NCBI GenBank assembly: GCA_019639255.1
Contig: JAHBSF010000002.1
Span: 5,117-69,116, forward strand
DNA from: Acidobacteriota bacterium
GTDB lineage: Bacteria > Acidobacteriota > Blastocatellia > RBC074
Reading direction: 5' to 3'
DNA: 64,000 bases
Part shown: positions 24,703 to 62,058 of the stretch, piece by piece
How the letters are laid out: each line of letters opens with the position of its first letter
Position numbering within the stretch: the first letter of the stretch is position 1
Program-made: the position numbers and the translations under genes
The notes under the pieces: model-generated
Told to the model about the DNA's origin: nothing
Seen by the model: only the letters and a program-made list of their open reading frames with translations
The model's database searches: none

Positions 24703-24803
24703 AAGAGAGATAACGGAACAAACGAAATGAAACGAAAATTACGGAAAACCTGAATATTTTAGTGGTTTCGGTCTTTTTTCGAATGTTGCGTTATCTCTCT
24801 TTC
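24703..24803. repeat. Hairpin repeat family 1, copy A (~100 bp imperfect palindrome) between chrA 3' end and the Dabb gene
   Basis: 'AAGAGAGATAACGGAACAAACGAAATGAAACGAAAATTACGGAAAACC-TGAATATTTT-AGTGGTTTCGGTCTTTTTTCGAATGTTGCGTTATCTCTCTTTC'. Confidence 0.7.
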
Positions 24804-24925
24804 AAAGCAGCTTTGATCGGATTGCGCTTCGCCGCCCAAAGATGCGCATTCGGTTTTTGCGAGGTATCGCCGGGCGCAAGGCGAGTGTCGTGCTCATGTA
24901 CTTCTCCTGTCTCTATAACATGAAT

Positions 24926-26278
24926 TCATTGATATAAGAACGTCCGCGCCATGCCGATCAAGCCGCCGCCTATGACGACCCAGAGCACATCCACCTTGAA
25001 CCGGTAGAGCGCAATAAACGCCGCCAGACTCAGCACAACGGCGAACCATTGCGTGCCGCCTGCCCAACCGCGCGGCCAGATCACCGCGGCGCCAAACACC
25101 AGCGCCAGATTCAGCACCACGCCAACCACTGCCGCAGTGATGCCGCTGAGCGCGCCTGTCAAATGGCGATTGCCGCGTAAAGACTCGATATATGGCGCGC
25201 CCAGAAAAATAAACAGGAAGCTCGGCAGAAAGGTGGCGTAGGTCGTAACAAACGCGCCGATGACGCCGCTCAAGGCGGGCGACATTCCCTGCGGATGATT
25301 CCACGCCGCCATAAAACCGACGAACTGCAAGACCATAATCAGCGGCCCCGGCGTCGTTTCAGCGAGCGCCAAACCGTCCACCGCTTGCTGTTGCGACAAC
25401 CAGCCGTAATTGCCGACCGCCGCCTGTGTGACGTAGGTGAGCACTGCATAGGCGCCGCCAAAGGTTACAAGCGCCGCTTGTGTGAAGAATCGATATTCCT
25501 GAGCGTGTAAACCGCCCCAACCGCTCCAGGCGATGAGTGTAATAAACGGCAAGACCCACAGCGTGATTCCAACCGCCAGCGTTCGCAATGCTCGCATGCG
25601 AGAAGGCTGCGTATGCGCGGGCGGCGGGGTCTCGACGGCAATGACGCTCACGGTTTTACCCTTTTCCTGGTTTGACAGCCCCTGCGGCCAGAAGCGTGAC
25701 AGCGCCAATCCGGCCAGCCCCGCCGCCATTACAAGCAGGGGAAACGGAACGTGAAGGAAATAAATCCCAACGAAAGCCAGCGGCGCGATCATAAAATGTG
25801 CTCGCCGCGACAACGCCCGTTTCCCGACTTTAAGCACCGCTTCGACAACAATGGCAACCACTACGGGCTTGAACCCGGTCAGGACGCCTGCTACCGCCGC
25901 GACATTGCCATACGCGGCGTAAATGTACGACAGCGCCAGCAAAATGAAGATTGACGGAAGGACAAAAAACGCTCCAGCTACAATGCCGCCCGGTATGCGA
26001 TGCAACAACCAGCCGATGTAAATCGCCAGTTGCTGCGCTTCAGGGCCCGGCAGCAACATGCAGTAATTGAGCGCATGCAGAAATCGTTCCTCGCTGACCC
26101 ATCGCCGCCGCTCGACCAGTTCGCGGTGCATAATCGCAATCTGCCCAGCCGGGCCGCCGAAACTGATGAAACCCAGCTTTACCCAAAAACGAAAGGCTTC
26201 GGCAAATGATATTCGGCGAGCACCTGGGTGTGCATCGATAGTCTCGCTTGAACTGCCTGTGAATACCGAATGTTTCAT
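24926..26278 (-). CDS. chrA: Chromate ion transporter (CHR family)
   Basis: '[53 protein letters not shown]' is the ChrA signature. The start was set at 'MKHSVF' (codon 17). Confidence 0.85.
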
Positions 26279-26471
26279 CGAGAACAATCTGCGGAGTACA
26301 CCGAACACGCGAAAGTTGATGAACAAAGATTGTTTTTCCCGGGATTTCCGTTTCTTTCGCGTATTCCGTGTTTATGTTTTATTCCCAAAACGAGAGACTT
26401 GTCCTTCGTTTTCCTGTACGACGAACCTGAATTCTTTGTTGCCGGCTTCGGTCAGACTGACCGTACTGGGC

Positions 26472-26570
26472 AAAGAGAGATAACGGAACAAACGAAATGT
26501 AACGAAAATTATGGAGAATCTGAATATTTCCGTAGTTTTCGTTGCATTTCGTTTGTTCCGTTGTTTACGT
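26472..26570. repeat. Hairpin repeat family 1, copy B (degenerate right arm) in the divergent chrA / regulator intergenic region
   Basis: 'CAAAGAGAGATAACGGAACAAACGAAATGTAACGAAAATTATGGAGAATC-TGAATATTT-CCGTAGTTTTCGTTGCATTTCGTTTGTTCCGTTGTTTACG'. Confidence 0.65.
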
Positions 26571-26624
26571 CTTACTTGAACCGCAACGCTCTGCGGAATA
26601 TGATCGCGGGCCAGGGAGGCGCGG

Positions 26625-29600
26625 ATGTTCCCCGGCTATACAGTTACCCAAGAAATATCGTCGGATTCGGTATATTCCCGGTACAGGTTGTATCGGGCGC
26701 GCAGGGTTGCGGACGGGCAACCGGTTCTGATCAAGGCAGCGAAACCGAAGAGCAACGGGCCGCACGGCGATGAATTGCTCGCGCGAGAGTACAATATTCT
26801 ACACAGCCTCAATGTTGAAAGCGTACCGAAGGTAATCGAGTTGCTGCACACCCCTGCCGGCGTCCATCTCGTGATCTGCGATCCGGGAGGACTTCCCCTG
26901 TGCACCGAACTTGCCCCGGGCCGCATTACGCTCGATCAGTTTCTGCGCCTCGCCGTTCGCATAACATCTGCTGTTGGAGAGATTCATCGCCGCCGAATCG
27001 TGCTTCGCTGCATAAATCCGGAGGGAGTATTTGTCGATCCGTCCCAAGACCGCATATCGATCGTGGATATGAGCCTCGCAAATCCGATTGCGCCTCCGGC
27101 ATCTGATCTGCCCTCTGAAGACGACCTTCAGGGCCTCCTCGGTTACTGCGCGCCGGAACTTACGGGCAGAATGAACCGCGCCGTCGACTTCAGTTCCGAT
27201 CTGTACTCGCTTGGCGTACTCTTCTACGAACTGATTACCGGACGGCTGCCATTCGAATCTTCGGATCCGATTGAACTCATCCACAGGCATCTGGCGGTAA
27301 CGCCTCTTGAGCCCGCCGCTGTCGATCCGCACATCCCCGAACAGTTGTCGCGGCTTGTAATGAAGATGCTTGCGAAAGCCCCGGAGGATCGATATCAGAC
27401 CGCTGCTGGTTTATACGCCGACATCGAAACCTGCACCCGCGATTGGATGCACAGCGGCCGGATTCGCCGATTTGCGCTCGGCGCCTGCGACGTTGCGGAT
27501 TCTTTTTCCGCACCGGAAAAACTGTACGGCAGGCAGCGCGAAGCAGAAGATCTGACAACAGCACTGAATCGGGCGTGCTCCGGACGCACCACAATTGTTC
27601 TGGTGCAGGGCGAATCCGGAATAGGCAAAACATCGCTCATACTGCAGCTTTGCAAACCCATGATCCGGCGCCGCGGCTATTTTATTACCGGAAAGTTCGA
27701 TCAGGTTTGTTCGGCGACACCCTACGGTGTATTGATCCGCGCATTGCGGGAGCTGGTTTCGCAGCTTCTAGGCGAAAGCGAAGCTCAATTAGCGACGTGG
27801 CGAGCGAGATTATCAGAAGTGTTGGGAGCTAACGCAGGCGCGATTGCCGAAGTGTTGCCGGAAATCGAATTGATCCTCGGCAAACAACCGCCCTCGCCTT
27901 CGGTGGCGCCCGCTGAGGCGCTGAATCGGTTTCAATCGGTGTTCCATAACTTAATCGCTGCTGTAGCGCGGCCTGAACATCCGCTGGTTGTATTCCTCGA
28001 CGATCTGCAATGGGCCGACGCCGGAACTCTGGAACTCATCCAAACGATGCTGACGCGAAATTCTACATTATCGCTTCTGCTGATCGGTGCATTTCGTGAC
28101 GGCGAAACCGACGACGATCACCCGCTTTCGCGTGTGCTTGCGACGATGGAATCAGCAGGAATCGCAATTGAACGTATTATTCCCGCCCCGCTCAATCGTG
28201 AGGATATGGAACGGATGCTTGCCGAGACGCTCCGCTGCAACGCCGAACAATCAGCATCGCTTGCGTCGTACTTGCTCGACAAGACCGGAGGCAATCCTTT
28301 TTTTGTGACGCAGTTGCTGAAATCGTTGAGCGAAGAAGGGCGGCTTCGCTTCGATCAGATGCGCCGGCAATGGGTATATCGAATCGACGAGGAAACGGAT
28401 GAGTCATCCGGGAATGAGGCGGTCGACCTGATTACACGCAGGTTGATTCGCTTGTCCGACGACGCAAGGCACGCGTTGACGGCGGCTTCCCTGATGGGAA
28501 ATTCATTCGATGCAGCAACCATAGCGATTGTTACCGATCGCCCCTCGGATGTTACTGTAAAGGCGCTGCTGGAAGCGGTGGAGCAAACATTCCTCATCCA
28601 ATCGCAGGAGCAAACATTCTCTTTCCTCCACGATCAGGTGCAACTCGCGGCATACTCGCTCATTCCGGAACGCGATCGACCATCGGTCCATCTCGCCGTC
28701 GGGCGACTTCTTCAAACACGCGGCGAGCCTGTTTCCGAAGACGATCATTTGTTCGATGTAGTCCATCACCTGAACATTGGAGCCGGGTTGATCGAGGATC
28801 ACGCCGAGAGGCTGGCGCTTGCACGCCTCAATCTCTCCGCCGGCGGAAAAGCACTGCGCGCCACGGCGTTCGATGCGGCGCGAGGTTACTTTACGGCAGG
28901 TGCACGGCTGATACAGGAAGACGAATGGACCACTGAGTACGAACTTGCATTTGCTCTTCATCACGGCGCGGCCGAATGCAGTTATTTATGCAGGGATTTC
29001 GATTCCGCCGATTCGGCGTTCGGCGAACTTATCAAGCGCGCCCGCACGAATACCGATCGAGCAAGCATATTCAACCTTCGCATAGTGCAGTACGAATACC
29101 AATCGCGGTATGAAGACGCAATAAATTGCGCGCGCACGGCGCTCGAACCGTTCGGCGTGCATTTGCCGGAAACCGGTTCGGTGCAGCAGGAGCTCGAAAG
29201 CGAAATGGAATCGATCGATCTGCTGCTCGGCGGCCGCAGAATAGCAGACCTCGCCGACCTTCCTTCGGCAACCCAACCGGAAATCAGGATGGTTATGAAA
29301 CTGCTGACCGCAACGTGGCCGTCGGCCTATATATCCGGAAGGCAGGCTCTCACTCGCCTGCTTTCCGCAACAATCGTCAGGTTATCGCTTGAATACGGAA
29401 ACGCGGAAGAATCCGCCTACGGCTACGTTACGCACGCAATCACTCTTGGACCGGTTCGGGAGGATTACCACGCAGCCTACGAGTTCGGGCTCCTTGCGCT
29501 GGAGGTGAATGAACGCTTCAACGACAGACGGCTGCGTGCAAAGGTGTTCCAGCAGTTCAATGCCCACGTAAACCTTTGGCGTCGCCCGCTTGAAACCTGT

Positions 29601-32600
29601 ATCGGATACGCACGCGAAGCCTGCCGCAGCGGATTGGAGAACGGGGATTTCACCTACGGCGTTTACGGCGCATTCACCGAATCGTGGGCGGGGCTGCTGA
29701 GTGCACCGAATCTCGCAGTCTTCATACGCGACTATGCCCCGAACACGGAGCTTTTCAGGAGATTGAATGCTTCGGCGATCGCCGACGCACAGGAGTTGAT
29801 CCTGAACTGGGCGCGCGCGCTTCGCGGCGAAACCGGATCACCCGCAAGCCTGTCGCACGGAGATTTTGACGAATCCCATTACATTGAAAAGTACCGCGAC
29901 GCCCCCTTCATCGCCGTCTATTACATCGTCGCGCGAATGCATCTGTTTTATCTGCACGGCGATATGGACTCCGCGCGGGATATGGCGCATCGCGGCGACG
30001 AAATAATTCACCATCTGAAAGGGACGATCTGGCCCGTAGAATTCCGGTTCTGGAAATCCCTGATCGCAGCAGCAGACCACACAAGCCGTGATGAAAAGAA
30101 CGGAGGTCCATATCACGAGGACCTGGATGAGGCGTGCAGATCTTTCGCCGTACTTGCAGCGAACTGCCCGGAAAACTTCTCGTGCCAGTCGCTCATACTG
30201 GAAGCCGAACGCGAAAGACTTGCGGGCAATGCGGCGCCGGCGATGAATCTTTATGAACGGGCCATCGAGTATGCCGCACATACCGGTTCAATCCGTTATC
30301 GCGCGCTCGCGCTTGAACTGTGTGCACGGCTTCAGGCGGCGGAAGGCCGCAGAAATGTTGCAGCTCTGTTTGCCGCTGAAGCGCGCGCCTGCTATCTGGC
30401 CTGGGGCGCGGTAACGAAATGGGAGCAGTTGGGAAGCCTATATCCGGAGGCGGTACGAACACACGAGGGGGCGACCGCATACGGACAATGGCGAGCAGGA
30501 TTGCCGGGGCAGGTAAAACCGGAAGGTAGTGACGGCAACAGGGCCCTTGATCACTTAAGCGTTCTGAAGGCGGCCCAGGCGATTGCCGGTGAAATGGAGC
30601 CCGACAAACTGCTGGCAAAGCTTACAAGAATTGTTACCGAAAATGCAGGAGCTACACGCGGATGCCTGTTGCTTGAATCGGCGAATGGCGCCCGCCTGCA
30701 CGCTGAATGCAGGACCGACAGCCGGGCTGATATTGACCGGGTAATTCTGCACCGGGCGGCGCCCCTGGCTGATTTGCAGGATCTTCCCGCCAGGCTGATC
30801 AACTACGTCAGACGTTCCGGAGAAAGCATCGTGCTGGAGGACGCCGCACTCGATGAGCGCTACGGCGATGAACCCCATTTTGCCCGCAACGGGGTCCGCT
30901 CGATTATGTGCGTTCCGGTAATAAATCAGGGCAGGCTCGTGGGCGTAATTTATCTTGAGAACAACAAGACCGCGAGTGCTTTTACGTCGAACCGGATATC
31001 GGTATGCGGAGTACTTGCATCGCAGGCTGCCGTATCGCTCGAAAACTCCCGTCTATACGACGAAATGAAATCGGGCAGGGAAACCCTGAAATCGATTATG
31101 GAGGGCACGGCTGCTGTCACGGGCGGCGATTTTTTTGCCTCACTGGTTCGACATCTGGCGTCGGCGATTCCGGTCAAAATCGCATTCGTCACCGAATGCG
31201 CAAACTCCGAACGCTCGCGCGCTCGCACGGTGGCATTCTGGGACGGCAAGGGTCTGGCGGAAAATTTTGAGTATGAAGTGCGGCAAACTACATGCGAAAA
31301 GGTCTACGCGGGCGAAACCTGCTTCTATGCCGACGAACTCCAGAAGCTGTTCCCCCAAGAAAAAGCGCTCACTGTGCTCGACGCTCAAAGCTACATCGGA
31401 CTTCCCATATTCGATTCGCAACACGAAGTCATAGGACACCTTGCCGTAATCGACGATGAACCGATGAACGAGCCGAGGGGAATGGAAATCCTGAAAATAT
31501 TTGCAGCACGCGCCGGGGCTGAACTCGAACGTATGGCGGCCGAGGCCGGTTTGAGGCGAGCAATGGCGGAAATCGAACAGTTAAAGAATCGACTGCATGC
31601 GGAGAATATTTACCTGCAGGAAGAAATCCGCTGCGAGCACAACTTTGATGAAATCGTGGGCACAAGCCCCGCGCTCATTGAAGTATTGCAACAGGTGGAA
31701 CGCGCCGCACCCACCGATGCCACGGTCCTCATACTGGGTGAAACCGGCGTCGGAAAGGAACTCATAGCGCGTGCAATACACGATCGCAGCCCGCGCAGGA
31801 CGCGGCCGCTGGTGAAGGTCAACTGCGGGGCCATTTCGTCGGGACTGGTCGAGAGCGAACTGTTCGGACACGTTAAGGGCGCATTCACCGGAGCGCTCGA
31901 CAAACGTACGGGCAGGTTTGAACTCGCGAACGGCGGCACCATCTTCCTCGATGAAGTCGGCGAACTCCCGCTCGAAGCCCAGGTCAAACTGCTGCGCGTG
32001 CTGCAGGAAGGCGAATTCGAACCCGTAGGCAGCAGCAAAACCGTCCGGGTCGATGTGCGCGTCATTGCGGCTACCAACCGGAACCTGGATGAAGAAGTCC
32101 GGACCGGACGCTTCCGCACCGATCTGTTTTACCGACTGAATGTGCTGCCGATAAATACTCCGCCGCTGCGCAGCCGGCGCTCCGACATTCCGCAGCTCGC
32201 AATGTTCTTCGCCGCACGCTTCGCACGACGGTTCGGCCGCGCAATAGATTCCATATCTCAGGAAACTGTTGACCGTATGGTGAACTACCACTGGCCGGGC
32301 AACATACGCGAACTTCAAAACCTGATCGAACGCGCCGTAATTCTCAGTACGGGTTCCGTACTTTCGATTTCGCCCGAACTCATCCCACTATCCCCGCCCC
32401 ATCAGGAGTACACAATCGACACACACCGCTCCTACAGCCTCCCCCAAATCCATATTTCTCCCTCGCCGGCAACCGAAAAGTACAATTCCCCTCCCCCCAC
32501 GCTCGTTGAACTGCAACGCCAACACATACTCAATGTTCTCAACCAGACCAAATGGGTAATTGAAGGCAAACACGGCGCCGCCAGACTCCTCGACCTTCAC

Positions 32601-32666
32601 CCCAATACCCTTCGCAGCAAATTGAAAAAAATGGGCATCAAACGCCCAACCTCACCCGCTTCCTGA
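26625..32666 (+). CDS. Giant (2013 aa) signalling protein: degenerate Ser/Thr-protein-kinase-like domain + AAA16/STAND P-loop NTPase + helical (TPR-like) region + GAF domains + sigma-54 interaction (AAA+) domain + Fis-type HTH
   Basis: A continuous ORF. Kinase-fold landmarks run through aa 1-270 ('GYCAPE', 'LGVLFYELITGRLPF'), but 'HRRRIVLRCINPEG' and 'IVDMSLA' replace HRDLKPEN and DFG. The Walker A is 'VQGESGIGKTSL'. GAF-like blocks follow ('CVPVINQGRLVGVIYLEN', 'YIGLPIFDSQHEVIGHLAV'). The EBP motifs are 'ILGETGVGKE', 'ELFGHVKGAFTGA' and 'RVIAATNRNL'. The C-terminal HTH is 'AARLLDLHPNTLRSKLKKMGI'. Confidence 0.85.
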   Translation: MFPGYTVTQEISSDSVYSRYRLYRARRVADGQPVLIKAAKPKSNGPHGDELLAREYNILHSLNVESVPKVIELLHTPAGVHLVICDPGGLPLCTELAPGRITLDQFLRLAVRITSAVGEIHRRRIVLRCINPEGVFVDPSQDRISIVDMSLANPIAPPASDLPSEDDLQGLLGYCAPELTGRMNRAVDFSSDLYSLGVLFYELITGRLPFESSDPIELIHRHLAVTPLEPAAVDPHIPEQLSRLVMKMLAKAPEDRYQTAAGLYADIETCTRDWMHSGRIRRFALGACDVADSFSAPEKLYGRQREAEDLTTALNRACSGRTTIVLVQGESGIGKTSLILQLCKPMIRRRGYFITGKFDQVCSATPYGVLIRALRELVSQLLGESEAQLATWRARLSEVLGANAGAIAEVLPEIELILGKQPPSPSVAPAEALNRFQSVFHNLIAAVARPEHPLVVFLDDLQWADAGTLELIQTMLTRNSTLSLLLIGAFRDGETDDDHPLSRVLATMESAGIAIERIIPAPLNREDMERMLAETLRCNAEQSASLASYLLDKTGGNPFFVTQLLKSLSEEGRLRFDQMRRQWVYRIDEETDESSGNEAVDLITRRLIRLSDDARHALTAASLMGNSFDAATIAIVTDRPSDVTVKALLEAVEQTFLIQSQEQTFSFLHDQVQLAAYSLIPERDRPSVHLAVGRLLQTRGEPVSEDDHLFDVVHHLNIGAGLIEDHAERLALARLNLSAGGKALRATAFDAARGYFTAGARLIQEDEWTTEYELAFALHHGAAECSYLCRDFDSADSAFGELIKRARTNTDRASIFNLRIVQYEYQSRYEDAINCARTALEPFGVHLPETGSVQQELESEMESIDLLLGGRRIADLADLPSATQPEIRMVMKLLTATWPSAYISGRQALTRLLSATIVRLSLEYGNAEESAYGYVTHAITLGPVREDYHAAYEFGLLALEVNERFNDRRLRAKVFQQFNAHVNLWRRPLETCIGYAREACRSGLENGDFTYGVYGAFTESWAGLLSAPNLAVFIRDYAPNTELFRRLNASAIADAQELILNWARALRGETGSPASLSHGDFDESHYIEKYRDAPFIAVYYIVARMHLFYLHGDMDSARDMAHRGDEIIHHLKGTIWPVEFRFWKSLIAAADHTSRDEKNGGPYHEDLDEACRSFAVLAANCPENFSCQSLILEAERERLAGNAAPAMNLYERAIEYAAHTGSIRYRALALELCARLQAAEGRRNVAALFAAEARACYLAWGAVTKWEQLGSLYPEAVRTHEGATAYGQWRAGLPGQVKPEGSDGNRALDHLSVLKAAQAIAGEMEPDKLLAKLTRIVTENAGATRGCLLLESANGARLHAECRTDSRADIDRVILHRAAPLADLQDLPARLINYVRRSGESIVLEDAALDERYGDEPHFARNGVRSIMCVPVINQGRLVGVIYLENNKTASAFTSNRISVCGVLASQAAVSLENSRLYDEMKSGRETLKSIMEGTAAVTGGDFFASLVRHLASAIPVKIAFVTECANSERSRARTVAFWDGKGLAENFEYEVRQTTCEKVYAGETCFYADELQKLFPQEKALTVLDAQSYIGLPIFDSQHEVIGHLAVIDDEPMNEPRGMEILKIFAARAGAELERMAAEAGLRRAMAEIEQLKNRLHAENIYLQEEIRCEHNFDEIVGTSPALIEVLQQVERAAPTDATVLILGETGVGKELIARAIHDRSPRRTRPLVKVNCGAISSGLVESELFGHVKGAFTGALDKRTGRFELANGGTIFLDEVGELPLEAQVKLLRVLQEGEFEPVGSSKTVRVDVRVIAATNRNLDEEVRTGRFRTDLFYRLNVLPINTPPLRSRRSDIPQLAMFFAARFARRFGRAIDSISQETVDRMVNYHWPGNIRELQNLIERAVILSTGSVLSISPELIPLSPPHQEYTIDTHRSYSLPQIHISPSPATEKYNSPPPTLVELQRQHILNVLNQTKWVIEGKHGAARLLDLHPNTLRSKLKKMGIKRPTSPAS

Positions 32667-32708
32667 ATTCCCGGGTGCACATATTCCCGGCAAATCCCGG
32701 TTGAGGTG

Positions 32709-32818
32709 GGGAGAGAGATAACAAAACAAACGAAATAAGACGGAAACTACGGAAATATTCAACCTTTCCGTTCTTTCCGTTTTATTTCGTTTGTTCCGTT
32801 ATCTCTCTCACGAAATGT
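32709..32818. repeat. Hairpin repeat family 1, copy C, 43 bp downstream of the giant regulator stop
   Basis: 'GGAGAGAGATAACAAAACAAACGAAATAAGACGGAAACTACGGAAATATTCAAC-CTTTCCGTTCTTTCCGTTTTATTTCGTTTGTTCCGTTATCTCTCTC'. Confidence 0.7.
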
Positions 32819-33110
32819 CGCGGCCACGAAATTTGTATGGCTCAATAGCCCTCGACAATTCGTGGGAGACGGATTTGAGATGATGGGTAGCAGTGTGTAT
32901 TTCATTGCAAATGCATAGTTTATGAGTAGCGGTGAGGAGATCGGGTCAACGGCACAAGCGTTGCCGTTGTGAGTGAGAAGGCAGAAAGGAGGGGAAAAGG
33001 CGTTGCGAATAAACGAGGAGTATATAGAGGAGCGGGCGACGAGGTAGCAGCTTGAGAGAAATCTGGTGAATCAATCGCACCGGATCTAATGATGCCGGAA
33101 AGGGAGAGTT

Positions 33111-33656: not shown

Positions 33657-33677
33657 GTCTCAACACCGCGATTTGCG

Positions 33678-34691
33678 TCACTGCTTCAGGTATTTGTCAA
33701 ACCACTCGATTGCGAGCCTGATGGATTCGGCGTATGCCTCGCGGTAAATGCCGTAGTGGGTGATGCCGGGAATGAGGACGTATTTCTTGTCCTTTCCCGG
33801 CGTCAGTTCGTAGGCGCGTTTTGCGTGGTGGGCGATGTCGAAGAGTTCTTCCTTCTCCGCGTCGATATACAATGCAGCGCACCGCAACCGCGCCGCATCT
33901 TCGACAAACCCGGCCCGCATCAGTTTGTCCCTTACGGGCGCGCCTATGAGATTGCCGTAGACGCCCTGTTTGCGCGCGGGCGGATACCCGATCTCGCCGC
34001 GTGCGCGCTGCGTGGCTTCCTCGTAGGCCGTCTTGAGTTGCTGCTCTTCCGGGCCGCCAAGCACAGTGATGGCCTTCGGGCGCGAATCGATCGCCGAAAC
34101 CTGGCTTACTATGGCCTTTACGCGCGGATCGTGCGCCGCTACGTGCACGATGTGACCGCCCGAATAACTCGATCCGCGCAGTCCGATCCTTGCGGAATCC
34201 ACCATCGGTTCACCCATCGCCCAGTGTATGGCGTTGAACCAGTCGGCTACGAATTCCAGCGGATCGACCACCTCTCGAACTTCCATTACCTCGGCGGTGA
34301 ATTTCTGATGCTCTCCGGATTTGGGTTTTACCGGCGAGGAACCCGCAAGAATCAACCGAGCATCGCTTTCGCCCCAGCCGCGATAATCGAACGTCAGCAC
34401 AAGGTAACCCGCTTTTGCTATATCGATCGAATCCCGGCGGAATGCTGCGGCCGTGCCGCCCCAGCCGTGCGCCTGAATCACGGTCGGGAGTTTCTTTCCG
34501 GTCAATTCCTTGAGCCAGAAAAGCTCGCCGTGCATTCGCACGCCCTCGCTCATTATGTTCACACGCCGGTACTCGATGCCCTCGGGCGGCCTGAAACCCG
34601 AAGGAGTCTGCGCCTGCTGCGCCGCTGCAAGCGAACAAACTACGAGCGCCGCACCGATAAACAGTCTGAAAGCGGATTTGCGTTTAGACAA
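33678..34691 (-). CDS. Secreted alpha/beta hydrolase, CocE/NonD (S15-like) type, paralog 1
   Basis: It has a signal peptide, 'AHGWGGTAAAFRRD...LTFDYRGWGESD' and a GxSYxG-type nucleophile elbow 'GLRGSSYSGGH'. Confidence 0.7.
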   Translation of the reverse strand: MSKRKSAFRLFIGAALVVCSLAAAQQAQTPSGFRPPEGIEYRRVNIMSEGVRMHGELFWLKELTGKKLPTVIQAHGWGGTAAAFRRDSIDIAKAGYLVLTFDYRGWGESDARLILAGSSPVKPKSGEHQKFTAEVMEVREVVDPLEFVADWFNAIHWAMGEPMVDSARIGLRGSSYSGGHIVHVAAHDPRVKAIVSQVSAIDSRPKAITVLGGPEEQQLKTAYEEATQRARGEIGYPPARKQGVYGNLIGAPVRDKLMRAGFVEDAARLRCAALYIDAEKEELFDIAHHAKRAYELTPGKDKKYVLIPGITHYGIYREAYAESIRLAIEWFDKYLKQ

Positions 34692-34710
34692 TTTAGTCCT
34701 CCCTGGTCTG

Positions 34711-34766
34711 AAGAGAGATAACGGAACTAACGAAATGATACGAAAATTACCGAAAATTGGTCAGAT
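34711..34766. repeat. Hairpin repeat family 1, copy D (left arm only; right arm replaced by the 3' end of the PQQ dehydrogenase gene)
   Basis: 'GAAGAGAGATAACGGAACTAACGAAATGATACGAAAATTACCGAAAATTGG' ends at the TAA of the minus-strand gene. Confidence 0.55.
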
Positions 34767-36794
<2,028 letters not shown>

Positions 36795-36965: not shown

Positions 36966-38021
36966 GTGCACACAATCAGTTTGCTCACCCGTGCGATCGC
37001 ATTGTTGATTCTGGTTGCTTTCGTGGGTTCGGTATCGGCTGTATCGGCGCAGCAATCGCCCGCCTCGACCGGGGCGACGCGCCCGCCCGACCCTGCCCGG
37101 TTCGCTCCCGTTCCTTCGGCGCAGTTCCGTGCACCGGACGACATAGACTTCAGGACCGCAAACATTACGAGCGAGGGAGTGCGGCTGCACGCCGAACTCT
37201 TTTCATTAAAATCCCTCGCAGGCAAACCGTTGCCGACAATAATTCAGGCGCATGGATGGGGCGGCACGGCGGCGAATCTCCGTCGCGATGCGGTGGATAT
37301 GGCCGCCGCTGGATTCCTCGTCATCACGTTTGACTATCGCGGCTGGGGCGAAAGCGACGCGCGGTTGATTCTCACCGCACCGTCCCCGGTAACACCTAAA
37401 TCCGGGCAGAACCAGAAATTCACGGCCGAGGTAGTCGAGCAGCGCGAGTACGTAGACCCGCTCGAACAAACTACCGACTGGTTCAACGTCATTCACTGGG
37501 CCGCAGGTGAAACAGCCGTGGACAAGGACCGAATCGGGCTGCGCGGATCGAGTTTTTCGGGCGGCCACGTAGTATATGTCGCGGCGCGGGAACCCAGGGT
37601 AAAAGCCGCCGTATCGCAGGTAGCGTCGCTTGACGGGCGTTGGGTTGGAGCGGATCGCGAGCAACTGGAAATTACGCGCAGGGAGGCTTCAGCGCGAGCG
37701 CACGGCGAGGCGTACCCGGCGCCGCGCTCGGTCGTTGTGGGTCGTCTGATCGGAGCGCCGATACGCCAGAAGTTCATGCATTTCGCTCCGGTTGAAGATG
37801 CCGCTGCGATCAGGGATGCGGCGATACTGTTTATCGTGGCGGAAAAGGAAGAACTCTTCGACAATAAGGATCATGCAAAACTCGCATACGATCGAATGCC
37901 CGGCGCAAAAAAGAAGTACGTCTCAATACCGAACATCACGCATTACGGCATTTATCGCGAATCGCGCGATGAAGCGATCCGGCTAGCTATCGAATGGTTC
38001 GATCAATATCTGAAAAAGTAG
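36966..38021 (+). CDS. Secreted alpha/beta hydrolase, CocE/NonD (S15-like) type, paralog 2
   Basis: It is collinear with 33678..34691: 'AHGWGGTAANLRRD...ITFDYRGWGESDARLIL', 'GLRGSSFSGGH', and the C-terminal 'HYGIYRESRDEAIRLAIEWFDQYLKK' versus '...HYGIYREAYAESIRLAIEWFDKYLKQ'. Confidence 0.7.
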   Translation: MHTISLLTRAIALLILVAFVGSVSAVSAQQSPASTGATRPPDPARFAPVPSAQFRAPDDIDFRTANITSEGVRLHAELFSLKSLAGKPLPTIIQAHGWGGTAANLRRDAVDMAAAGFLVITFDYRGWGESDARLILTAPSPVTPKSGQNQKFTAEVVEQREYVDPLEQTTDWFNVIHWAAGETAVDKDRIGLRGSSFSGGHVVYVAAREPRVKAAVSQVASLDGRWVGADREQLEITRREASARAHGEAYPAPRSVVVGRLIGAPIRQKFMHFAPVEDAAAIRDAAILFIVAEKEELFDNKDHAKLAYDRMPGAKKKYVSIPNITHYGIYRESRDEAIRLAIEWFDQYLKK

Positions 38022-38025
38022 GTAA

Positions 38026-38125
38026 GGAAGAGATAACGGAACAGACGAAAATAGACGAAAACCACGGAAAAGTTGAATATTTCCGTAATTTTCGTCTTTT
38101 TTCGTTTGTTCCGTTATCTCTCTTC
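38026..38125. repeat. Hairpin repeat family 1, copy E, at the convergent junction of hydrolase paralog 2 and coxD
   Basis: 'GAAGAGATAACGGAACAGACGAAAATAGACGAAAACCACGGAAAAG-TTGAATATTTCCG-TAATTTTCGTCTTTTTTCGTTTGTTCCGTTATCTCTCTTC'. Confidence 0.7.
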
Positions 38126-38142
38126 TCTCTGCTGACGGGCGT

Positions 38143-38457: not shown

Positions 38458-38460
38458 AGA

Positions 38461-47120: not shown

Positions 47121-50157
<3,037 letters not shown>

Positions 50158-50184
50158 CGAGTTCTCGTTTCTCTGCGGGATTGT

Positions 50185-53719: not shown

Positions 53720-53741
53720 CTTGAAAAAAGCGAACCGCCGG

Positions 53742-54797: not shown

Positions 54798-54876
54798 CTC
54801 CGATGCTGTGTAAATGTTGTCGGCACTTTAAGTCGCTGAGAGCTTCAAGTCAACACAGCCGAGCTCGTTTATAGAA

Positions 54877-54976
54877 GAAAGAGAGATAACGGAACAAACG
54901 AAATAAACGAAACAAACGGAAAGTTTGACCATTTCCGTTTGTTTCGTTTATTCCGTTTGTTCCGTTATCTCTCTTT
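54877..54976. repeat. Hairpin repeat family 1, copy F (most symmetric copy; palindromy extends into GTTTATA / TATAAAC flanks)
   Basis: 'GTTTATAGAAGAAAGAGAGATAACGGAACAAACGAAATAAACGAAACAAACGGAAAG-TTTGACCA-TTTCCGTTTGTTTCGTTTATTCCGTTTGTTCCGTTATCTCTCTTTTATAAAC'. Confidence 0.75.
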
Positions 54977-55000
54977 TATAAACAAGCTCTGCGATTTTCC

Positions 55001-58318
<3,318 letters not shown>

Positions 58319-58571
58319 TTCCTTCTCCATAACTCCTGAGTTTGCGGGAATAGCGGCTCCGGTTCTACGCCGGGCAATCGACCCGGGTACCGGCGCAAAT
58401 GAAAGAGGCATCGTAATCGCCCGGCCTTAAAACCGGAGCAACTCGACGTAAAATCGGTGTTAAGAATCCCAGCGGCGGAACAATAGCAGCGCTTCTGGAA
58501 AAGATAAAGGGAAAACTGATGCACTTGAAACGGGCCCGGGAACAAAATCGAATCACACGACTTCGGGATCT

Positions 58572-58672
58572 GGAAGAGAGATAACGGAATAAACGAAATG
58601 AGACGGAAACTACGGAAACAATCAATTTTCCCGTACTTTTCGTTTCATTTCGTATGTTGCGTTATCTCTATT
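58572..58672. repeat. Hairpin repeat family 1, copy G in the divergent TonB / DUF1080 intergenic region
   Basis: 'GGAAGAGAGATAACGGAATAAACGAAATGAGACGGAAACTACGGAAACAATCAA-TTTTCCCGTACTTTTCGTTTCATTTCGTATGTTGCGTTATCTCTATTTT'. Confidence 0.7.
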
Positions 58673-58807
58673 TTTTATACCAATCTACTGTAGATCGATA
58701 AAGGTTGTGATTCGGCCCGGGACGGTGCAATAATCCGGGCGATAACCAACAGGTTTCGACTGCATCGACTACTTCTGCTACTTCGAATACTTGTATAAGG
58801 AGAATAC

Positions 58808-59749
58808 ATGCGCGCACGCACATTGATGTCCGCACTGGCGGCGGTTTTGATTTTTACGGCAGTCGCCACGGCGCAGGAGAACCCGTTTCTGGGCAAATGG
58901 GATATCACCGCTACGGGACCGAGCGGCAAATTCCCGTACTGGCTCGAAGTGAAAATGGAAGATGGAATGTTGGCGGGTTATTTCCTGAACCGGGGTGGGA
59001 GCGTGCTGAAGCTTCCGGAAATCAGCATAGAAAACGGGGAACTGATTTTTTCACCCGCGCGAGGCGCAAACGCACCGAAGATCGTACATCGCGCACGGGT
59101 CGATGAGGGGCGGCTGCTCGGAACCGTCACGGGGGGAAATGCGCAGATCTCGTGGATAGGGGTGAGACCGCCGAGCTGGGGCATTCACAACGCAAATGCT
59201 CGCCATCGCTTCGGGACTCCGGTCGAACTCTTCGACGGCAAGAGCCTCGACAAATGGGATGTTCAGTTCAAGGACCGCGAATCGGGCTGGAGCATTGAAG
59301 ACGGGCTGATGACGAACATCCCGCGCGCAAACAACCTTGTTTCAAAACACCAATTTGAAAACTTTCGCATACGCGCCGAATACAAACTCGAAGAAAAAAG
59401 CAACAGCGGCATCTACCTGCGCGGCCGCTACGAGCTTCAGGTTCTCGACGATCACGGCAAAGACCCCGACAGCCACGGACATATGGGGCTTTACAGCCGC
59501 GTAAAACCCCTGGTCAATGCAAGCCTGCCTCCCGGCCAGTGGCAGGTTATGGAAGCGATAATCGTGGGCAATCGCCTGACCGTGACGCTGAACGGCAAAA
59601 AGATGCACGACAACATAGTCATTGACGGCATAACCGGAGGAGCGCTCGATGCAAACGAGGGCGCGCCCGGACCGATTATGCTGCAGGGCGATCACGGCAA
59701 GGTCTACTTCCGCCGCATAACGGTCACACCCATCATGGCTTCAAAGTAA
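58808..59749 (+). CDS. Secreted DUF1080 protein (3-keto-disaccharide-hydrolase / laminin-G-like fold)
   Basis: It has a signal peptide and an AGGAG SD. 'NSGIYLRGRYELQVLDDHGKD' and 'IMLQGDHGKVYFRRITV' are the DUF1080 signatures. Confidence 0.75.
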   Translation: MRARTLMSALAAVLIFTAVATAQENPFLGKWDITATGPSGKFPYWLEVKMEDGMLAGYFLNRGGSVLKLPEISIENGELIFSPARGANAPKIVHRARVDEGRLLGTVTGGNAQISWIGVRPPSWGIHNANARHRFGTPVELFDGKSLDKWDVQFKDRESGWSIEDGLMTNIPRANNLVSKHQFENFRIRAEYKLEEKSNSGIYLRGRYELQVLDDHGKDPDSHGHMGLYSRVKPLVNASLPPGQWQVMEAIIVGNRLTVTLNGKKMHDNIVIDGITGGALDANEGAPGPIMLQGDHGKVYFRRITVTPIMASK

Positions 59750-59752
59750 TAA

Positions 59753-60352
59753 ATGCCCTCGGTCTACGACCTGAAGCCGAGGTTCCAACGGCTCTTGCGC
59801 CCCCTTATGGCAAGGATGACCCGGCTGGGTCTGCGGCCGAACCACGTCACCATTGCGGCGGTGATGGGTTCGGTCGCCGCGGGCGCCCTTGTAGCATATA
59901 ACGGCTGGCTATGGCTGCTGCCCGTATGGCTGTTTGCACGTATGGCTCTTAACGCCATAGACGGAATGATGGCGCGCGAGTTTGACCTTGTTTCGGATCT
60001 GGGAGCAGTCCTTAACGAACTCGGCGATGTGTTATCGGATCTGGCGATCTACCTGCCGCTGGCGCTGCTTCAACCCGAACTGCGGATATCCGCAACAACC
60101 TTCGCAATCACCGCAACACTGACCGAATTTTGCGGAGTGATGAGCCGCGCGCTAGGCGCTTCGCGCCGCTACGACGGCCCTATGGGAAAAAGCGATCGCG
60201 CGTTTCTAATCGGTGCAATGGGCCTTGCAGGCTGGATTGCGCCTGAAACGCTGCGCTACTGGCCCTGGATTCTCGGCCTCGCCGCCGCAGCCGGCGTCTG
60301 GACCTGCATCAACCGCGTGCGGGGCGCGTTAAAGGAGTTGCGAGAGCGATGA
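59753..60352 (+). CDS. CDP-alcohol phosphatidyltransferase family protein
   Basis: 'NAIDGMMAREFDLVSDLGAVLNELGDVLSD' fits the DG-x2-AR-x8-G-x3-D-x3-D family motif. It starts 4 nt after the DUF1080 stop and overlaps cdsA by 4 nt. Confidence 0.7.
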   Translation: MPSVYDLKPRFQRLLRPLMARMTRLGLRPNHVTIAAVMGSVAAGALVAYNGWLWLLPVWLFARMALNAIDGMMAREFDLVSDLGAVLNELGDVLSDLAIYLPLALLQPELRISATTFAITATLTEFCGVMSRALGASRRYDGPMGKSDRAFLIGAMGLAGWIAPETLRYWPWILGLAAAAGVWTCINRVRGALKELRER

Positions 60353-61293
60353 GTCTTTCGGCGTTCACCGAGCTTTCACCCGTATGGCGAATGGGAGCAA
60401 TTCTCCTCGGCGTACTCGTTCTGGCTTCTGCAATCACGGTAATCCTGCGTGTTTTGCAGCCGAAGCGGAACTTCAGCGAACTCAGCGCGCGCGTGGCTTC
60501 GTGGTGGGCGATGGCGGCGGTATTTTTCGGCGCAGTAGCGGTAAGCGACAGGCTTGCACTGGTGCTGCTGGCGTTCCTGAGCTTCTGGGCGATGAAGGAA
60601 TACGTCACGCTGCTAAAGACGCGCCCCGCCGATCATTCCGGGTTGGTTCTCACGTTTCTGGCCGTACCGATTCAGTATTACTGGATATGGATCGGTTGGT
60701 ACGGAATGTTCGTCATTTTTATTCCTGTATATGTTTTTCTGATTTTGCCTGTGCGGCTGGTGCTGTCGCGCGAGACCGCCGGTTTTGTAGCCTCAGCGTC
60801 GCAGATCCAATGGGGGCTGATGGCGTTTGTATTCGGTCTTAGCCACCTGGGTTTTCTGCTCGTAATGCCGCCGACGCTCGATGGGGAGTCCAACGGAAGG
60901 GCGCTTCTGCTTTTTCTCGTCTTTGTCACCGAGATCAGCGACGTATTGCAGTACATATGGGGCAAGACCTTCGGTCGCAGGAAAATTCTGCCGAGCGTGA
61001 GTCCCGACAAGACCTGGGAGGGATTCCTGGGCGGCATTGCGACTACGGTTTTGATAAGCATCGGACTGCGATTTCTGACGCCGTTTACGGTTGCTGAAAC
61101 CGCGATCGTAGCCCTGATGACGACGCTTGCAGGTTTCGGCGGCGGGGCCGTAATGAGCGCGGTCAAACGGGATTTCGGCGTCAAGGATTTCGGCGGCCTG
61201 ATTCCCGGACACGGCGGGATGCTGGATCGCGTGGATTCGCTTTGTTACGCCGCTCCCATATTCTTCCACTATGTCCGCTACTTCCACTACTGA
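60349..61293 (+). CDS. cdsA: Phosphatidate cytidylyltransferase (CDP-diacylglycerol synthase)
   Basis: The C-terminal 'SPDKTWEGFLGG...IPGHGGMLDRVDSL' is the CTP_transf_1 signature. Confidence 0.8.
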   Translation: MSLSAFTELSPVWRMGAILLGVLVLASAITVILRVLQPKRNFSELSARVASWWAMAAVFFGAVAVSDRLALVLLAFLSFWAMKEYVTLLKTRPADHSGLVLTFLAVPIQYYWIWIGWYGMFVIFIPVYVFLILPVRLVLSRETAGFVASASQIQWGLMAFVFGLSHLGFLLVMPPTLDGESNGRALLLFLVFVTEISDVLQYIWGKTFGRRKILPSVSPDKTWEGFLGGIATTVLISIGLRFLTPFTVAETAIVALMTTLAGFGGGAVMSAVKRDFGVKDFGGLIPGHGGMLDRVDSLCYAAPIFFHYVRYFHY

Positions 61294-61963
61294 AGAAAAT
61301 CGCGCTGCGTCGTCCGCCGCAACCGGAAGGAGCGTATGGGCGGATCTTTTTCAGCGGCTGATATTCGCTCTTGCGATCAAGCCGTTTATGATCCTGTTCA
61401 TAGGCCTTCGCGTCAGCGGTCGCCGACATTTGCCCGAAAAGGGGCCGTTTATCCTCTATGCAAACCACAGCAGCCATCTGGATACGGTATCGCTGCTGAG
61501 CCTTTTCCCCACACGCAGGCTGCGCGAACTTCGCCCGGTGGCGGCGGCCGACTATTTCGAGCGCAACCGCTGGGTATCGATGTTTTCGCGCACGTTTTTC
61601 AATACGCTGCCCATTGCCCGTCGCGACATATCGCAAACGAACAATCCGCTCAAAGGCATGCTCTCGGCGATTGAGTCCGGTCAAGCGCTTATCATCTTTC
61701 CTGAAGGAACCCGGGGAAGCGGCGAATCGCTGGGGGCGTTCAGATCGGGGCTTTCGCATCTCGTTGAACAGGCGCCCGGCATTCCCGTTGTGCCCGTAGC
61801 CCTCGTGAACATGGGGCGAAGCCTTCCCAAGGGCGCTTTGATTCCGGTGCCGTTTTTTTGTGAAATCCGCGTAGGTGAACCCCGCGTCCCGTCGGGAGCG
61901 CGATCGGAGATACGGCGGGAGCTTGAGGGCGCGCTTCGTAATCTACTCGAGGGCGGCCGATGA
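61271..61963 (+). CDS. plsC: 1-acyl-sn-glycerol-3-phosphate acyltransferase (lysophospholipid acyltransferase)
   Basis: It has the 'ANHSSHLD' HxxxxD motif and 'IIFPEGTRG'. It overlaps cdsA by 23 nt. Confidence 0.8.
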   Translation: MSATSTTEENRAASSAATGRSVWADLFQRLIFALAIKPFMILFIGLRVSGRRHLPEKGPFILYANHSSHLDTVSLLSLFPTRRLRELRPVAAADYFERNRWVSMFSRTFFNTLPIARRDISQTNNPLKGMLSAIESGQALIIFPEGTRGSGESLGAFRSGLSHLVEQAPGIPVVPVALVNMGRSLPKGALIPVPFFCEIRVGEPRVPSGARSEIRRELEGALRNLLEGGR

Positions 61964-62058
61964 CTGAACAAACGAAATAAAACGAAAATGAGTTAAAAGT
62001 TGATTATTTCCGTCTGTTCCGTCCTGTTTCGTTTGTTCCGTTATTTCTCTTTTATGTC
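61964..62058. repeat. Hairpin repeat family 1, copy H (left tip overlapped by the plsC stop codon)
   Basis: 'CTGAACAAACGAAATAAAACGAAAATGAGTTAAAAG-TTGATTATTTCCG-TCTGTTCCGTCCTGTTTCGTTTGTTCCGTTATTTCTCTTTTAT'. Confidence 0.65.

Follow-up and report, generated by a model that had tools for sequence, protein, structure and literature searches.

We found that the stretch of DNA analysed here, a window of 64,000 nucleotides (64 kb), carries an apparently undescribed family of palindromic non-coding repeats of ~100 bases, located mostly just 3' of genes, and we could confirm that this family is real. In our best explanation, to which we assign a probability of about 0.6, these are lineage-restricted interspersed palindromes of the REPIN/MITE kind, the arms of which are kept complementary and which likely act as two-way transcript-end hairpins. 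The window originates from an uncultured, Blastocatellia-like soil acidobacterium.

A search of the window for the 24-nt tip of the element, GAGAGATAACGGAACAAACGAAAT, yielded 12 matches where 0.00 would be expected (≤3 mismatches; 100 shuffles). All eight copies reported in an earlier note on this DNA were found at the positions it gave, and the window tally comprises seven full copies of ~100 nt (A, B, C, E, F, G and H) and one half copy (D). A covariance model, proposed in the same note, added 9375-9475, 11153-11247 and a weak relative at 15613-15705 when the window was scanned. The 1.36-Mb contig of which the window is part carries three more copies within 9 kb outside it, and the scan together with the contig beyond the window gives ~13 family members in 73 kb. 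The elements and their tail modules are listed below, with folding z and covariance-model score where available.

2495..2623, plus strand: one-armed relic, AACAGACGG x4.2 followed by polypurine, between a stop at 2490 and an ATG at 2624
9375..9475: divergent full copy, GAGAAACCGCGGAACACACGGAAT... (z -9.6; 88.8 bits)
11153..11247: GC-richer relative with CGGAA sub-repeats, forming the entire convergent gap from the stop of a PMT_2 gene (11153) to that of a TonB-dependent receptor gene (11246) (z -6.4; 48 bits)
15613..15705: weak relative, 3 nt past an alcohol-dehydrogenase stop (minus strand) (z -3.6; 19.5 bits)
24675..24702, minus strand: tail module of A, reverse complement TTTTATGTCCCGAAGTCGTGTCCGCC
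24703..24802: copy A, complete palindrome, mismatched at several inner-stem positions; it precedes a Dabb gene and follows the chromate-transporter stop (minus strand) by 123 nt (z -7.4; 91.4 bits)
26473..26572: copy B, between the divergently transcribed genes of the chromate transporter (minus) and a 2013-aa kinase/sigma-54 activator (plus) (z -13.1)
32711..32810: copy C, between the 2013-aa kinase gene, whose stop lies 44 nt away, and a downstream ECF sigma factor gene (z -13.2; ~105 bits)
34711..34766: copy D, left arm only, no hairpin, directly adjoining the TAA (34767-34769) of a PQQ dehydrogenase (minus strand), in a 76-nt gap preceding the next minus-strand gene (z +0.5)
38026..38125: copy E, filling the gap where a hydrolase (stop 38021) and cox subunit IV (stop 38143) converge (z -12.2)
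54878..54976: copy F, best palindrome with 44/45 pairs, 24 nt past the stop of a TonB-dependent receptor gene (minus strand) (z -16.4; 106.9 bits)
58545..58573, minus strand: tail module of G, reverse complement CCAGATCCCGAAGTCGTGTGATTCGATTT
58574..58673: copy G, flanked by divergently transcribed genes for a TonB-dependent receptor (minus) and, on the other side, a 3-keto-disaccharide hydrolase (plus) (z -10.3)
61953..62052: copy H, full length with a degenerate left tip holding the acyltransferase TGA (61961-61963) where the consensus tip GAGAGATAAC has TAA (z -2.5; 75.5 bits)
62053..62082, plus strand: tail module of H, TATGTCCCGATGTCGTTTGGTTTGATTTGT

Of the two copies described earlier as half-elements, D is indeed one, whereas H turned out to be full length, its left tip overlapping the acyltransferase stop. 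The relic recognized earlier at 2495-2623 was recovered as a left-arm-like 9-nt array followed by polypurine. The 15613..15705 relative shares 80% identity with the 11153 element across 76 nt, and the 9375..9475 copy adjoins an unrelated perfect hairpin (9247-9316).

From one end to the other, the element consists of the tip, an arm, a loop that is short, variable and AT-rich, and the mirrored arm and tip. Each arm consists of ~4 tandem 9-nt units with the core ACGRAA, and TRF scored the arms as arrays of 9-nt period; this organization of mirrored 9-base tandem arrays is unusual among hairpin repeats. The tips are 91–93% conserved and the inner arms 78–81%, the loop is poorly conserved, and the purine content of the 5' arms reaches 70–85%. 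The central loop TGAATATTT, previously regarded as conserved, is common to only about half of the copies and occurs in both orientations. Four copies bear a one-sided tail of ~28 nt, the motif of which was found solely beside elements. With respect to the tail, the loop takes both orientations, in two copies each. Three things had been overlooked in the earlier note: the tandem 9-nt organization of the arms, the polar tail, and the occurrence in related genomes of further hairpin families constructed in this way.

The stems of the seven full copies span 30–45 bp, six of them with z between -7 and -16. The expectation that every copy folds into a stem of ~45 bp was borne out for B, C, E, F and G (39–45 bp; z -10 to -16), but A folds more poorly, H is weak because its left tip is degenerate, and D, as expected of a half element, remains unfolded. 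Pairing across the family is maintained: 90.5% of cells are paired versus 40–49% after sliding the partners, compensatory double changes affect 11 of 37 pairs (21 cells), and the covariation score was matched in none of 500 shuffles. In copy B, the plus-strand RNA folds far better than the minus-strand RNA and contains six G-U pairs. In the family, the asymmetry between G-U and A-C does not follow the direction of transcription and so does not speak for selection at the RNA level. We suggest that arm complementarity would be held by inter-arm recombination or gene conversion, by selection for the hairpin, or by both.

The CG dinucleotides that recur every 9–10 nt along each arm fit another idea, namely that mirrored ACGRAA/CGGAA cores spaced 9–10 bp apart on one helix face form an array in double-stranded DNA to which a nucleoid protein or regulator would bind. 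Both IHF and gyrase are known to bind REP/BIME elements. IHF also binds the Correia elements (PMC2649163). Yet, the core motif varies with the pairing retained, sister families are based on unrelated units, and no candidate binding protein was found, which makes this reading highly improbable.

The sister hairpin families are built on the units GTAGAAA, GGTTAGT and GTCAGTT, and arrays of GTAGAAA, GTGCTGA and GGTTAGT were also seen in the loci examined. In the GTAGAAA family, 90 nt of the hairpin is the exact reverse complement between two genomes with identical flanks, the neighboring TonB-dependent receptor protein being 98% identical. This inversion and the two orientations of the loop relative to the tail were counted for inter-arm recombination. 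Arms made of tandem 7- or 9-nt units occur in several genomes, and the number of units varies between orthologous copies (e.g., five in L025 vs. three in L026).

As for gene context, near-stop elements begin 0–45 nt past stop codons. The five near-stop copies counted earlier are C (44 nt), D (0), E (4 and 17), F (24) and H, which overlaps its stop. Copy A is not among them: the TAA at 24700 closes no ORF of at least 50 aa, and the copy follows the chromate-transporter stop by 123 nt. Long palindromes occupy all four convergent gaps in 73 kb of the source genome, and 8 of 10 convergent gaps versus 3 of 15 divergent ones in ~170 kb of related loci. No long palindrome lies inside the 12.7-kb ACIII-cox operon, and the only copy within a tight co-directional gene pair is D, which misses one arm. 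At the site just 3' of an orthologous TonB-dependent receptor gene, a hairpin is present in seven genomes and belongs to four unrelated sequence types; most of these hairpins are long, but that of L024 is imperfect and only ~23 bp.

RNA transcribed from either strand would be rich in purines in its 5' arm and in pyrimidines in its 3' arm, which ends in CUCUCUUU(U), and would form a stem of 40–45 bp right past the stop codon. Such a hairpin would set transcript 3' ends both ways, through termination, a block to 3'-exonucleases, or as an RNase III substrate. The post-stem U-run is just 3–4 nt, and the AU-rich stem is far longer than in known intrinsic terminators. Canonical intrinsic terminators number 23 against 18.5 expected, which is no enrichment, and none was found at gene ends, and a promoter search within the element returned none. 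In the source genome, three of four divergent gaps hold a palindrome, two of them from the described family (B and G, correctly located in divergent regions by the earlier note), and termination does not account for these. The two-way terminator or 3'-hairpin role proposed earlier thus agrees with the gene-end position, but its pure terminator version does not fit the two divergent-gap copies. On this positional and folding evidence, the element is probably a two-way transcript-end hairpin, termination itself being a prediction.

The nearly complete filling of convergent gaps, the gene end that is always hairpinned with a differing sequence, and the unit numbers that differ between orthologues would also suit modules built by the host, in which hairpins grow in place via tandem-unit slippage and template switching, and similar sequences arise or are exchanged by recombination. 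We regard this as very unlikely: near-identical 24-nt tips occur at many unrelated loci in different MAGs, and hence independent growth in place cannot be their origin; the divergent-gap copies B and G also speak against it.

Related copies are present in other MAGs, Blastocatellia ones included, and in metagenomes (L001, L002, L009 and L011, among the matches listed), including a JGI metagenome, and have non-orthologous, unrelated gene neighbors; that of L001, for instance, lies between a GNAT gene and an F420H2-quinone-reductase gene. Faulty assembly or scaffolding, or duplication within this region alone, which the earlier note had named as a possible source of the copies, is therefore ruled out, its probability being practically nil: an independent Logan assembly contains H unchanged and in a contig interior (L014:3378-3477), and copies differ by 13–35%. 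It is true that short-read contigs start or stop inside elements (Logan contigs L003–L005 terminate within copy E), but palindromes are expected to break contigs anyway. No matches to plasmids or phage contigs were found, Rfam comparison gave no family at gathering score, and the literature search yielded no paper describing the family, in line with the earlier note, which knew of none.

From the distribution of these sequences, we infer that the family is mobile and would have spread via copying or transposition through intergenic DNA of the acidobacterial genome and its relatives. Variants include truncated (D and 2495), short (L013:16947) and rearranged (L013:15799) forms; the truncated and composite ones were counted as an indirect sign of mobility. 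Copy-to-copy identity is 65–87%, which indicates no recent burst and gives no sign of recent activity. The closest relative at hand, L010 (~81% identical in protein), lacks the hairpin and tail in the orthologous divergent gap, where intergenic DNA is no longer alignable, and no clean empty site was found, this gap included. No direct repeats flank any copy, and the TATA flanks of F, previously suspected to be a target-site duplication, are the palindrome's own extension. No transposase or RAYT gene was found in the window, in the neighboring loci or in the other loci examined. Of the earlier interpretation, the dispersed hairpin family thus stands, but a target-site duplication, a transposase and a clean empty site were not found.

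Two kinds of transposition may be considered. Classical MITEs, i.e., internally deleted insertion sequences whose TIRs are read by a DDE transposase to give a fixed target-site duplication, agree with the family in size, intergenic place, truncated copies and the highest conservation at the termini, and a true MITE with TIR and TSD in a related genome (L012:13352-13790) indicates that such elements are active in the group. This origin is nevertheless quite unlikely, given the lack of flanking direct repeats, the palindromic and compensated nature of the entire element and not of the ends alone, the tandem-array arms, and the absence of an autonomous partner among the exact-tip matches listed (genomes, metagenomes, viral contigs). 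In turn, true REPINs would be doublets of REPs moved in trans via single-stranded DNA hairpins by a RAYT (IS200/IS605 Y1 family) encoded elsewhere. RAYT-type tyrosine transposases have been reported in Acidobacteria (PMC3733652), and the extragenic layout of about 100 nt with conserved inverted ends and a less conserved, compensated spacer is that of published REPINs (PMC3116915). However, the 24-nt end is not palindromic and lacks a tag of the GTAG or CGTC type, direct 9-nt arrays make up the arms, and no Y1 transposase gene was found in the window or other gene-called loci; we consider true REPINs unlikely.

The preferred reading, interspersed palindromes that likely define transcript ends, can be set against several known systems. 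The bidirectional intrinsic terminators of E. coli and Bacillus serve convergent genes and have GC-rich stems of 5–15 bp. Like them, the acidobacterial element shows an A-rich run, a hairpin and a T-rich run on both strands, lies tens of nt from stop codons and fills convergent gaps; in contrast, its stem is AU-rich and 40–45 bp long, its U-run is just 3–4 nt, its sequence is repeated, and copies occur in divergent gaps too. Inverted arms made of short tandem sub-repeats are shared with eukaryotic Foldback (FB) elements, which, however, are kilobase-sized. The GTAGAAA, GTGCTGA and GGTTAGT arrays resemble the STRR of heterocystous cyanobacteria, tandem heptamers scattered in intergenic DNA, although we know of no description of STRR as mirrored arrays forming gene-end hairpins.

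REPINs (~70–110 nt), known from Pseudomonas and other RAYT-bearing bacteria, are likewise extragenic and palindromic, with inverted ends that are highly conserved, compensatory changes in a spacer of lower conservation, a hairpin predicted in single-stranded DNA or mRNA, and many copies and several families per genome (PMC3116915). The acidobacterial family differs in its untagged, non-palindromic ends, its arms of tandem 9-nt arrays, the one-sided tail of some copies, and the lack of a RAYT gene near the copies. Correia/NEMIS elements (CREE) of Neisseria are intergenic inverted-repeat elements of 100–150 bp, often co-transcribed with their neighbors, whose long hairpins are RNase III targets and can change the expression of genes on both sides (PMC2649163). 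The acidobacterial family is similarly intergenic, inverted-repeat and long-hairpin. Yet, in Correia elements, 26-bp terminal inverted repeats surround a core that is not palindromic, a TA target is duplicated, and an IHF site and outward promoters are present (PMC2649163), whereas the acidobacterial element is wholly palindromic, with no TA duplication seen and no internal promoter found. ERIC/IRU, RUP, BOX and other MITE-like repeats are short, non-coding, intergenic imperfect palindromes, transcribed with their neighbors into stable RNA folds that alter mRNA stability (PMC3733652); our family shares their short, non-coding, intergenic and palindromic character, but not their sequences, and its tandem-sub-repeat arms are absent from them. 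The acidobacterial family adds to the hairpin repeats of REP/MITE type already described in other bacteria.

We found that the palindromic hairpin repeats of the window (copies A-H, about 100 nt long, D retaining the left arm only) form a real dispersed family, as the earlier note had proposed. Their conserved 24-nt terminus, the tip, has 12 matches in the window at up to three mismatches and none in 100 shuffles, and a repeat finder retrieves the family (D1-D3, I5-I17 and I24-I25 in the window). A covariance model of the copies, suggested at that time, was built from a training alignment of 10 copies; its unfiltered scan adds three members in the window. Further copies lie past the right end of the window on the same contig (L013), and about 13 members lie in the 73 kb of window and right-hand extension.

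Members of the hairpin family in the window and in the right-hand extension of its contig (L013)
9375-9475: divergent full copy, covariance model score 88.8 bits
11153-11247: GC-richer relative, covariance model score 48 bits
15613-15705: weak member, covariance model scan
24703-24802: copy A
26473-26572: copy B
32711-32810: copy C
34711-34766: copy D, left arm only
38026-38125: copy E
54878-54976: copy F
58574-58673: copy G
61953-62052: copy H
L013:12321-12420: further copy, 112 bits
L013:15799-15896: further copy
L013:16947-17021: further copy

The family is dispersed to unrelated loci and to other genomes. The tip occurs at no fewer than two loci of the genome collection and in one true copy from metagenomes, where three more matches fall by chance within chemoreceptor-like coding sequence; in viral contigs we obtained eight chance coding matches without a hairpin, and plasmid blastn gave no match to the repeat. 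The window sequence itself also corresponds to a stretch at approximately 917.8-981.8 kb in the 1.36-Mb contig JAHCHF010000001.1, which belongs to assembly GCA_026129895.1 ('MAG: Acidobacteria bacterium'), and the labels of the other repeat-carrying genomes and of the best TonB-dependent receptor homologues read Blastocatellia, Blastocatellales or Pyrinomonadaceae. An assembly artefact, which would have undone the family, is excluded, since the copies differ pairwise by 13-35% and an identical H lies in the interior of an independent Logan assembly (L014). Several short-read contigs begin or stop inside elements; contig breaks at palindromes are expected and carry little information on copy number. 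Logan contigs of the same strain (SRR12908336, SRR12908343, SRR12908352) start or finish within elements at the ends of L003-L005, at L014:1-98 and at L015:1-65, so that the palindromes systematically fragment the assemblies of this organism at gene boundaries.

The tips are the best conserved part of the element (91-93% column conservation), followed by the inner arms (78-81%), and the loop is variable. Tandem Repeats Finder resolves the arms into arrays of 9-nt period with about four units, AACGAAACA on one side and TTCCGTTTG on the other; a CG dinucleotide thus appears every 9-10 nt. Whichever strand is read, purines make up 70-85% of the 5' arm, so that any transcript would consist of a purine arm, the loop and a pyrimidine arm, and end in CUCUCUUU(U). 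The central loop had been described as conserved, and about half of the copies do share it, though not all, and in both orientations. A one-sided tail of about 28 nt, TTTTATGTCCCGAAGTCGTGTGAATCGAT, is common to four copies (A, G, H and L013:12321) and found nowhere else within the window. In A, H and L013:12321 the hairpin comes after the upstream stop and is itself followed by the tail and the next gene, and the tail of G, located in a divergent gap, faces the TonB-dependent receptor gene. The tip contains a TAA (GAGAGA-TAA-C), and the corresponding TGA in H serves the upstream gene as stop codon; H, formerly taken for a half-element, is in fact of full length, its decayed left tip holding the acyltransferase stop codon.

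The elements show a clear positional bias. Most of those in the source genome are situated 0-45 nt past stop codons, in agreement with the earlier observation; the nearest real stop of A, a correction to the earlier account, is 123 nt away. Long palindromes fill all four convergent gaps of the source genome (11153, 19420, E and L013:15799; the one at 19420 represents a different family) and three of its four divergent gaps, two of which hold the present family, namely B and G, as had been recognized. No element interrupts the 12.7-kb respiratory (cox) operon, and the sole copy within a tight co-directional pair (76-nt gap) is D, which has lost one arm and does not fold. When the source genome and six related loci are pooled (about 170 kb), long palindromes are present in 8/10 convergent, 18/68 co-directional and 3/15 divergent gaps. 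These counts depend on gene calls made by tools in the relatives, on our choice of Pfam-supported ORFs in the window (two calls being uncertain) and on palindromes called by a blastn self-reverse-complement scan, an MFE-based scan being too permissive (244 'hairpins' in the window). The gene content of the window is that of an ordinary chromosome, including TonB-dependent receptors, an alternative-complex-III/cytochrome-oxidase operon, PQQ dehydrogenase, a 2013-aa kinase/sigma-54 activator and phospholipid-synthesis genes, with no transposase genes within it. The 2013-aa ORF (26625-32666), lying between B and C, combines Ser/Thr kinase, AAA_16/STAND NTPase, GAF, sigma-54 activator AAA+ and Fis-type HTH domains. 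The PQQ dehydrogenase gene is flanked by paralogous alpha/beta-hydrolase genes in inverted orientation (33680-34487 and 37233-38019; 71-74% complementary DNA), one adjoined by D and the other by E.

We compared the sequence directly 3' of orthologues of the TonB-dependent receptor gene located between F and G.

Sequence directly 3' of the receptor gene in the window and in related loci (L numbers)
Window: copy F
L011 (77% identical): clear family relative, 55 bits
L024 (88% identical to L011): different hairpin, GC-rich, imperfect and only ~23 bp long, assigned by eye on the alignment and absent from the palindrome scan calls
L010 (81%): unrelated GC-rich hairpin with 46-nt arms
L025 and L026: (GTAGAAA)n/(TTTCTAC)n hairpins of 5 and 3 units, respectively
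L012 (98% identical to L025): L025-type hairpin interrupted by an element of ~440 nt that has terminal inverted repeats (TIRs) and a duplicated TTAAGTAA target

The presence of a hairpin at the end of this gene is constant, and its sequence turns over. Such constancy fits either selection for 'some hairpin' or preferential insertion at gene ends, and the turnover argues against the sequence itself, e.g., a protein-binding motif, being what matters. The L012 element (approximately 13352-13800), with terminal inverted repeats CTGATGTTACGCAGAG ... CTCTTCTGCGTAACATCAG and duplicated TTAAGTAA, is a genuine insertion of MITE type within a hairpin repeat; the hairpin it breaks, made of (GTAGAAA)n, is intact in L025. 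At the opposite end of the receptor gene, the divergent gap contains neither G nor the tail in L010, the nearest relative in this empty-site search at only 81% protein identity; compared with this highly diverged gap, G plus tail lie within an indel of about 170-180 nt, the flanks being too diverged for placing its borders.

Predicted RNA folds give stems of 39-45 bp for B, C, E, F and G (z -10 to -16), a weaker structure for A (z -7.4) and a weak one for H (z -2.5), and the half copy D does not fold. Hairpin pairing is maintained: standard pairs account for 90.5% of the cells in the 10-sequence alignment vs. 40-49% with partners slid by 1-3 columns, two-sided changes affect 11 of 37 pairs (21 cells), and the covariation score was reached by 0 of 500 shuffles. 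Several copies are mutually only about 75% identical, yet each is a near-perfect palindrome (44/45 pairs in F). Maintained pairing alone is no proof of RNA-level selection, because the G-U vs. A-C asymmetry of 16 copies does not track the direction of transcription and is uninformative as to the functional strand, and because a DNA-level process is directly evidenced. In the sister GTAGAAA-heptamer family, L012:7111-7200 (90 nt, most of the hairpin) is the exact reverse complement of L025:6428-6517, with identical flanks and, in the two genomes, neighbouring receptor proteins that are 98% identical. This is an in-place inversion, for which inter-arm recombination is the simplest explanation; such recombination would homogenise the arms and also produce apparently 'compensatory' changes. 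The flipped hairpin occupies a convergent gap. In the present family, the loop points one way relative to the tail in A and L013:12321 and the other way in G and H; inversion or either-way insertion has therefore occurred here too. Whether hairpin repeats are kept by RNA selection or by inter-arm recombination can be addressed in this tractable family, and the inversion seen in two nearly identical genomes speaks for the latter.

Other hairpin repeats accompany the family. A second, larger palindromic family (145-333 nt) is found at 5162-5451, 17888-18067, 19420-19638 and L013:13960-14292; its outer ends consist of AGTGCTG heptamers in mirrored arrays, and its arms contain the Acido-Lenti-1 sRNA motif (RF01687: 5219-5265 minus, 5348-5394 plus, 17923-17970 minus), which suggests that Acido-Lenti-1 belongs to a palindromic interspersed repeat and is not a stand-alone sRNA gene. 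The gene between two of these palindromes (18114-19340) was considered as an insertion sequence and rejected, as it encodes an ordinary esterase. GC-rich near-perfect hairpins of other sequence at 9247-9316 and 17632-17692 (perfect stems of 26 and 20 bp), as well as a 49-nt direct repeat, 96% identical between two intergenic regions (9303-9351 and 17056-17104), may represent further small repeat families. Many more long hairpins, unrelated in sequence, are present between the genes of related Blastocatellia contigs; several have heptamer-array arms (GTCAGTT, GGTTAGT, TTTTGGA).

Other long hairpins in related contigs
L001:1157-1235
L001:2734-2811
L001:2932-3024
L001:4262-4382
L001:5037-5131
L002:5663-5746
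L009:1066-1195
L011:15928-16013
L012:613-770

L001 contains five long palindromes and one more hairpin (4262-4382) within 8 kb, apparently at least one in each intergenic gap.

We favour, with a probability of roughly 0.6, an interspersed palindromic family of the REPIN/MITE kind, whose copies would have spread through the genome by some copying route, whose hairpin is probably kept by inter-arm recombination and/or selection, and which would act, or be tolerated, as a two-way transcript-end hairpin. We infer this RNA effect from position (0-45 nt past stops, 4/4 convergent gaps, none in the cox operon), but two copies lie in divergent gaps. A broader and rather doubtful reading is that Blastocatellia gene ends are generally punctuated by unusually long hairpins (30-60 bp), with arms that would be mirrored arrays of 7-9-nt tandem units, and that these hairpins, instead of canonical intrinsic terminators, would be the main signal for transcript ends. 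Families (CGGAA-type 9-mers, GTAGAAA, GTGCTGA, GGTTAGT and others) would then succeed each other at a given orthologous gene end, flip in place by inter-arm recombination and grow or shrink unit by unit, as a self-renewing, recombination-maintained 'foldback' repeat class. Were such hairpins the main terminators or RNase III sites, expression models and terminator predictors for the phylum would need revision. One more REP/MITE-like family is in itself unsurprising; Acidobacteriota, however, are among the most abundant soil bacteria, and their non-coding DNA and transcript ends are almost unstudied. The family and its sisters offer a ready operon-boundary marker and explain short-read assembly breaks at gene ends in these organisms.

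With regard to known classes, the stem of an intrinsic terminator is GC-rich and about 5-15 bp long, its loop measures 3-8 nt, and its U-tract has 7-9 nt. The present elements, with stems of 40-45 bp at about 35% GC, a loop of about 9 nt and only TTT or TTTT after CTCTC, are ruled out as canonical terminators by stem length, GC content and U-tract, and the consensus scan does not call them; canonical terminators are not enriched (23 found vs. 18.5 expected, 0 at gene ends). TIR-type MITEs have a target-site duplication of fixed length and TIRs matching an autonomous insertion sequence. The flanks of 12 copies contain no direct repeat, and the TATA flanks of F, put forward as such a duplication, are part of an extended palindrome; exact-tip scans of genomes (among the matches listed), metagenomes and viral contigs yielded only short elements or chance coding matches, with no autonomous partner. 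We therefore consider this class unlikely. Integron attC sites are rejected, the neighbours being core chromosomal genes on both strands and the R''/R' GTTRRRY signature being absent. No described family was recognized, as before: Rfam 15 at gathering thresholds has none for this repeat, its sole match in the window being RF01687 (5219-5394, 17923-17970), a different repeat; an E-value scan of F gave only sub-threshold generic hairpins, e.g., miRNA precursors; our literature search on acidobacterial or Blastocatellia palindromic repeats found nothing relevant, and a tree-of-life hairpin survey does not mention Acidobacteriota.

Arms built of tandem sub-repeats are a hallmark of eukaryotic Foldback elements, which the present family resembles in this respect, and to our knowledge of no described bacterial family. 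REPs are imperfect palindromes of 20-40 bp, usually with GTAG (or CGTC) at one end. The tip, GAGAGATAACGGAACAAACGAAAT, has no internal dyad and neither GTAG nor CGTC, and the arms are direct 9-nt arrays. The layout of inverted conserved ends with a compensated spacer is that of REPINs (PMC3116915), but the family lacks the REP unit that defines them, namely a short GTAG- or CGTC-tagged palindrome (PMC3733652), and neither the 64-kb window nor the fetched loci contain a RAYT (Y1 transposase) gene; we therefore do not file it as a REPIN. Correia elements were shown to be RNase III substrates (PMC2649163), as a perfect duplex of 40-45 bp would likewise be, which makes RNase III processing of the present elements as plausible as termination.
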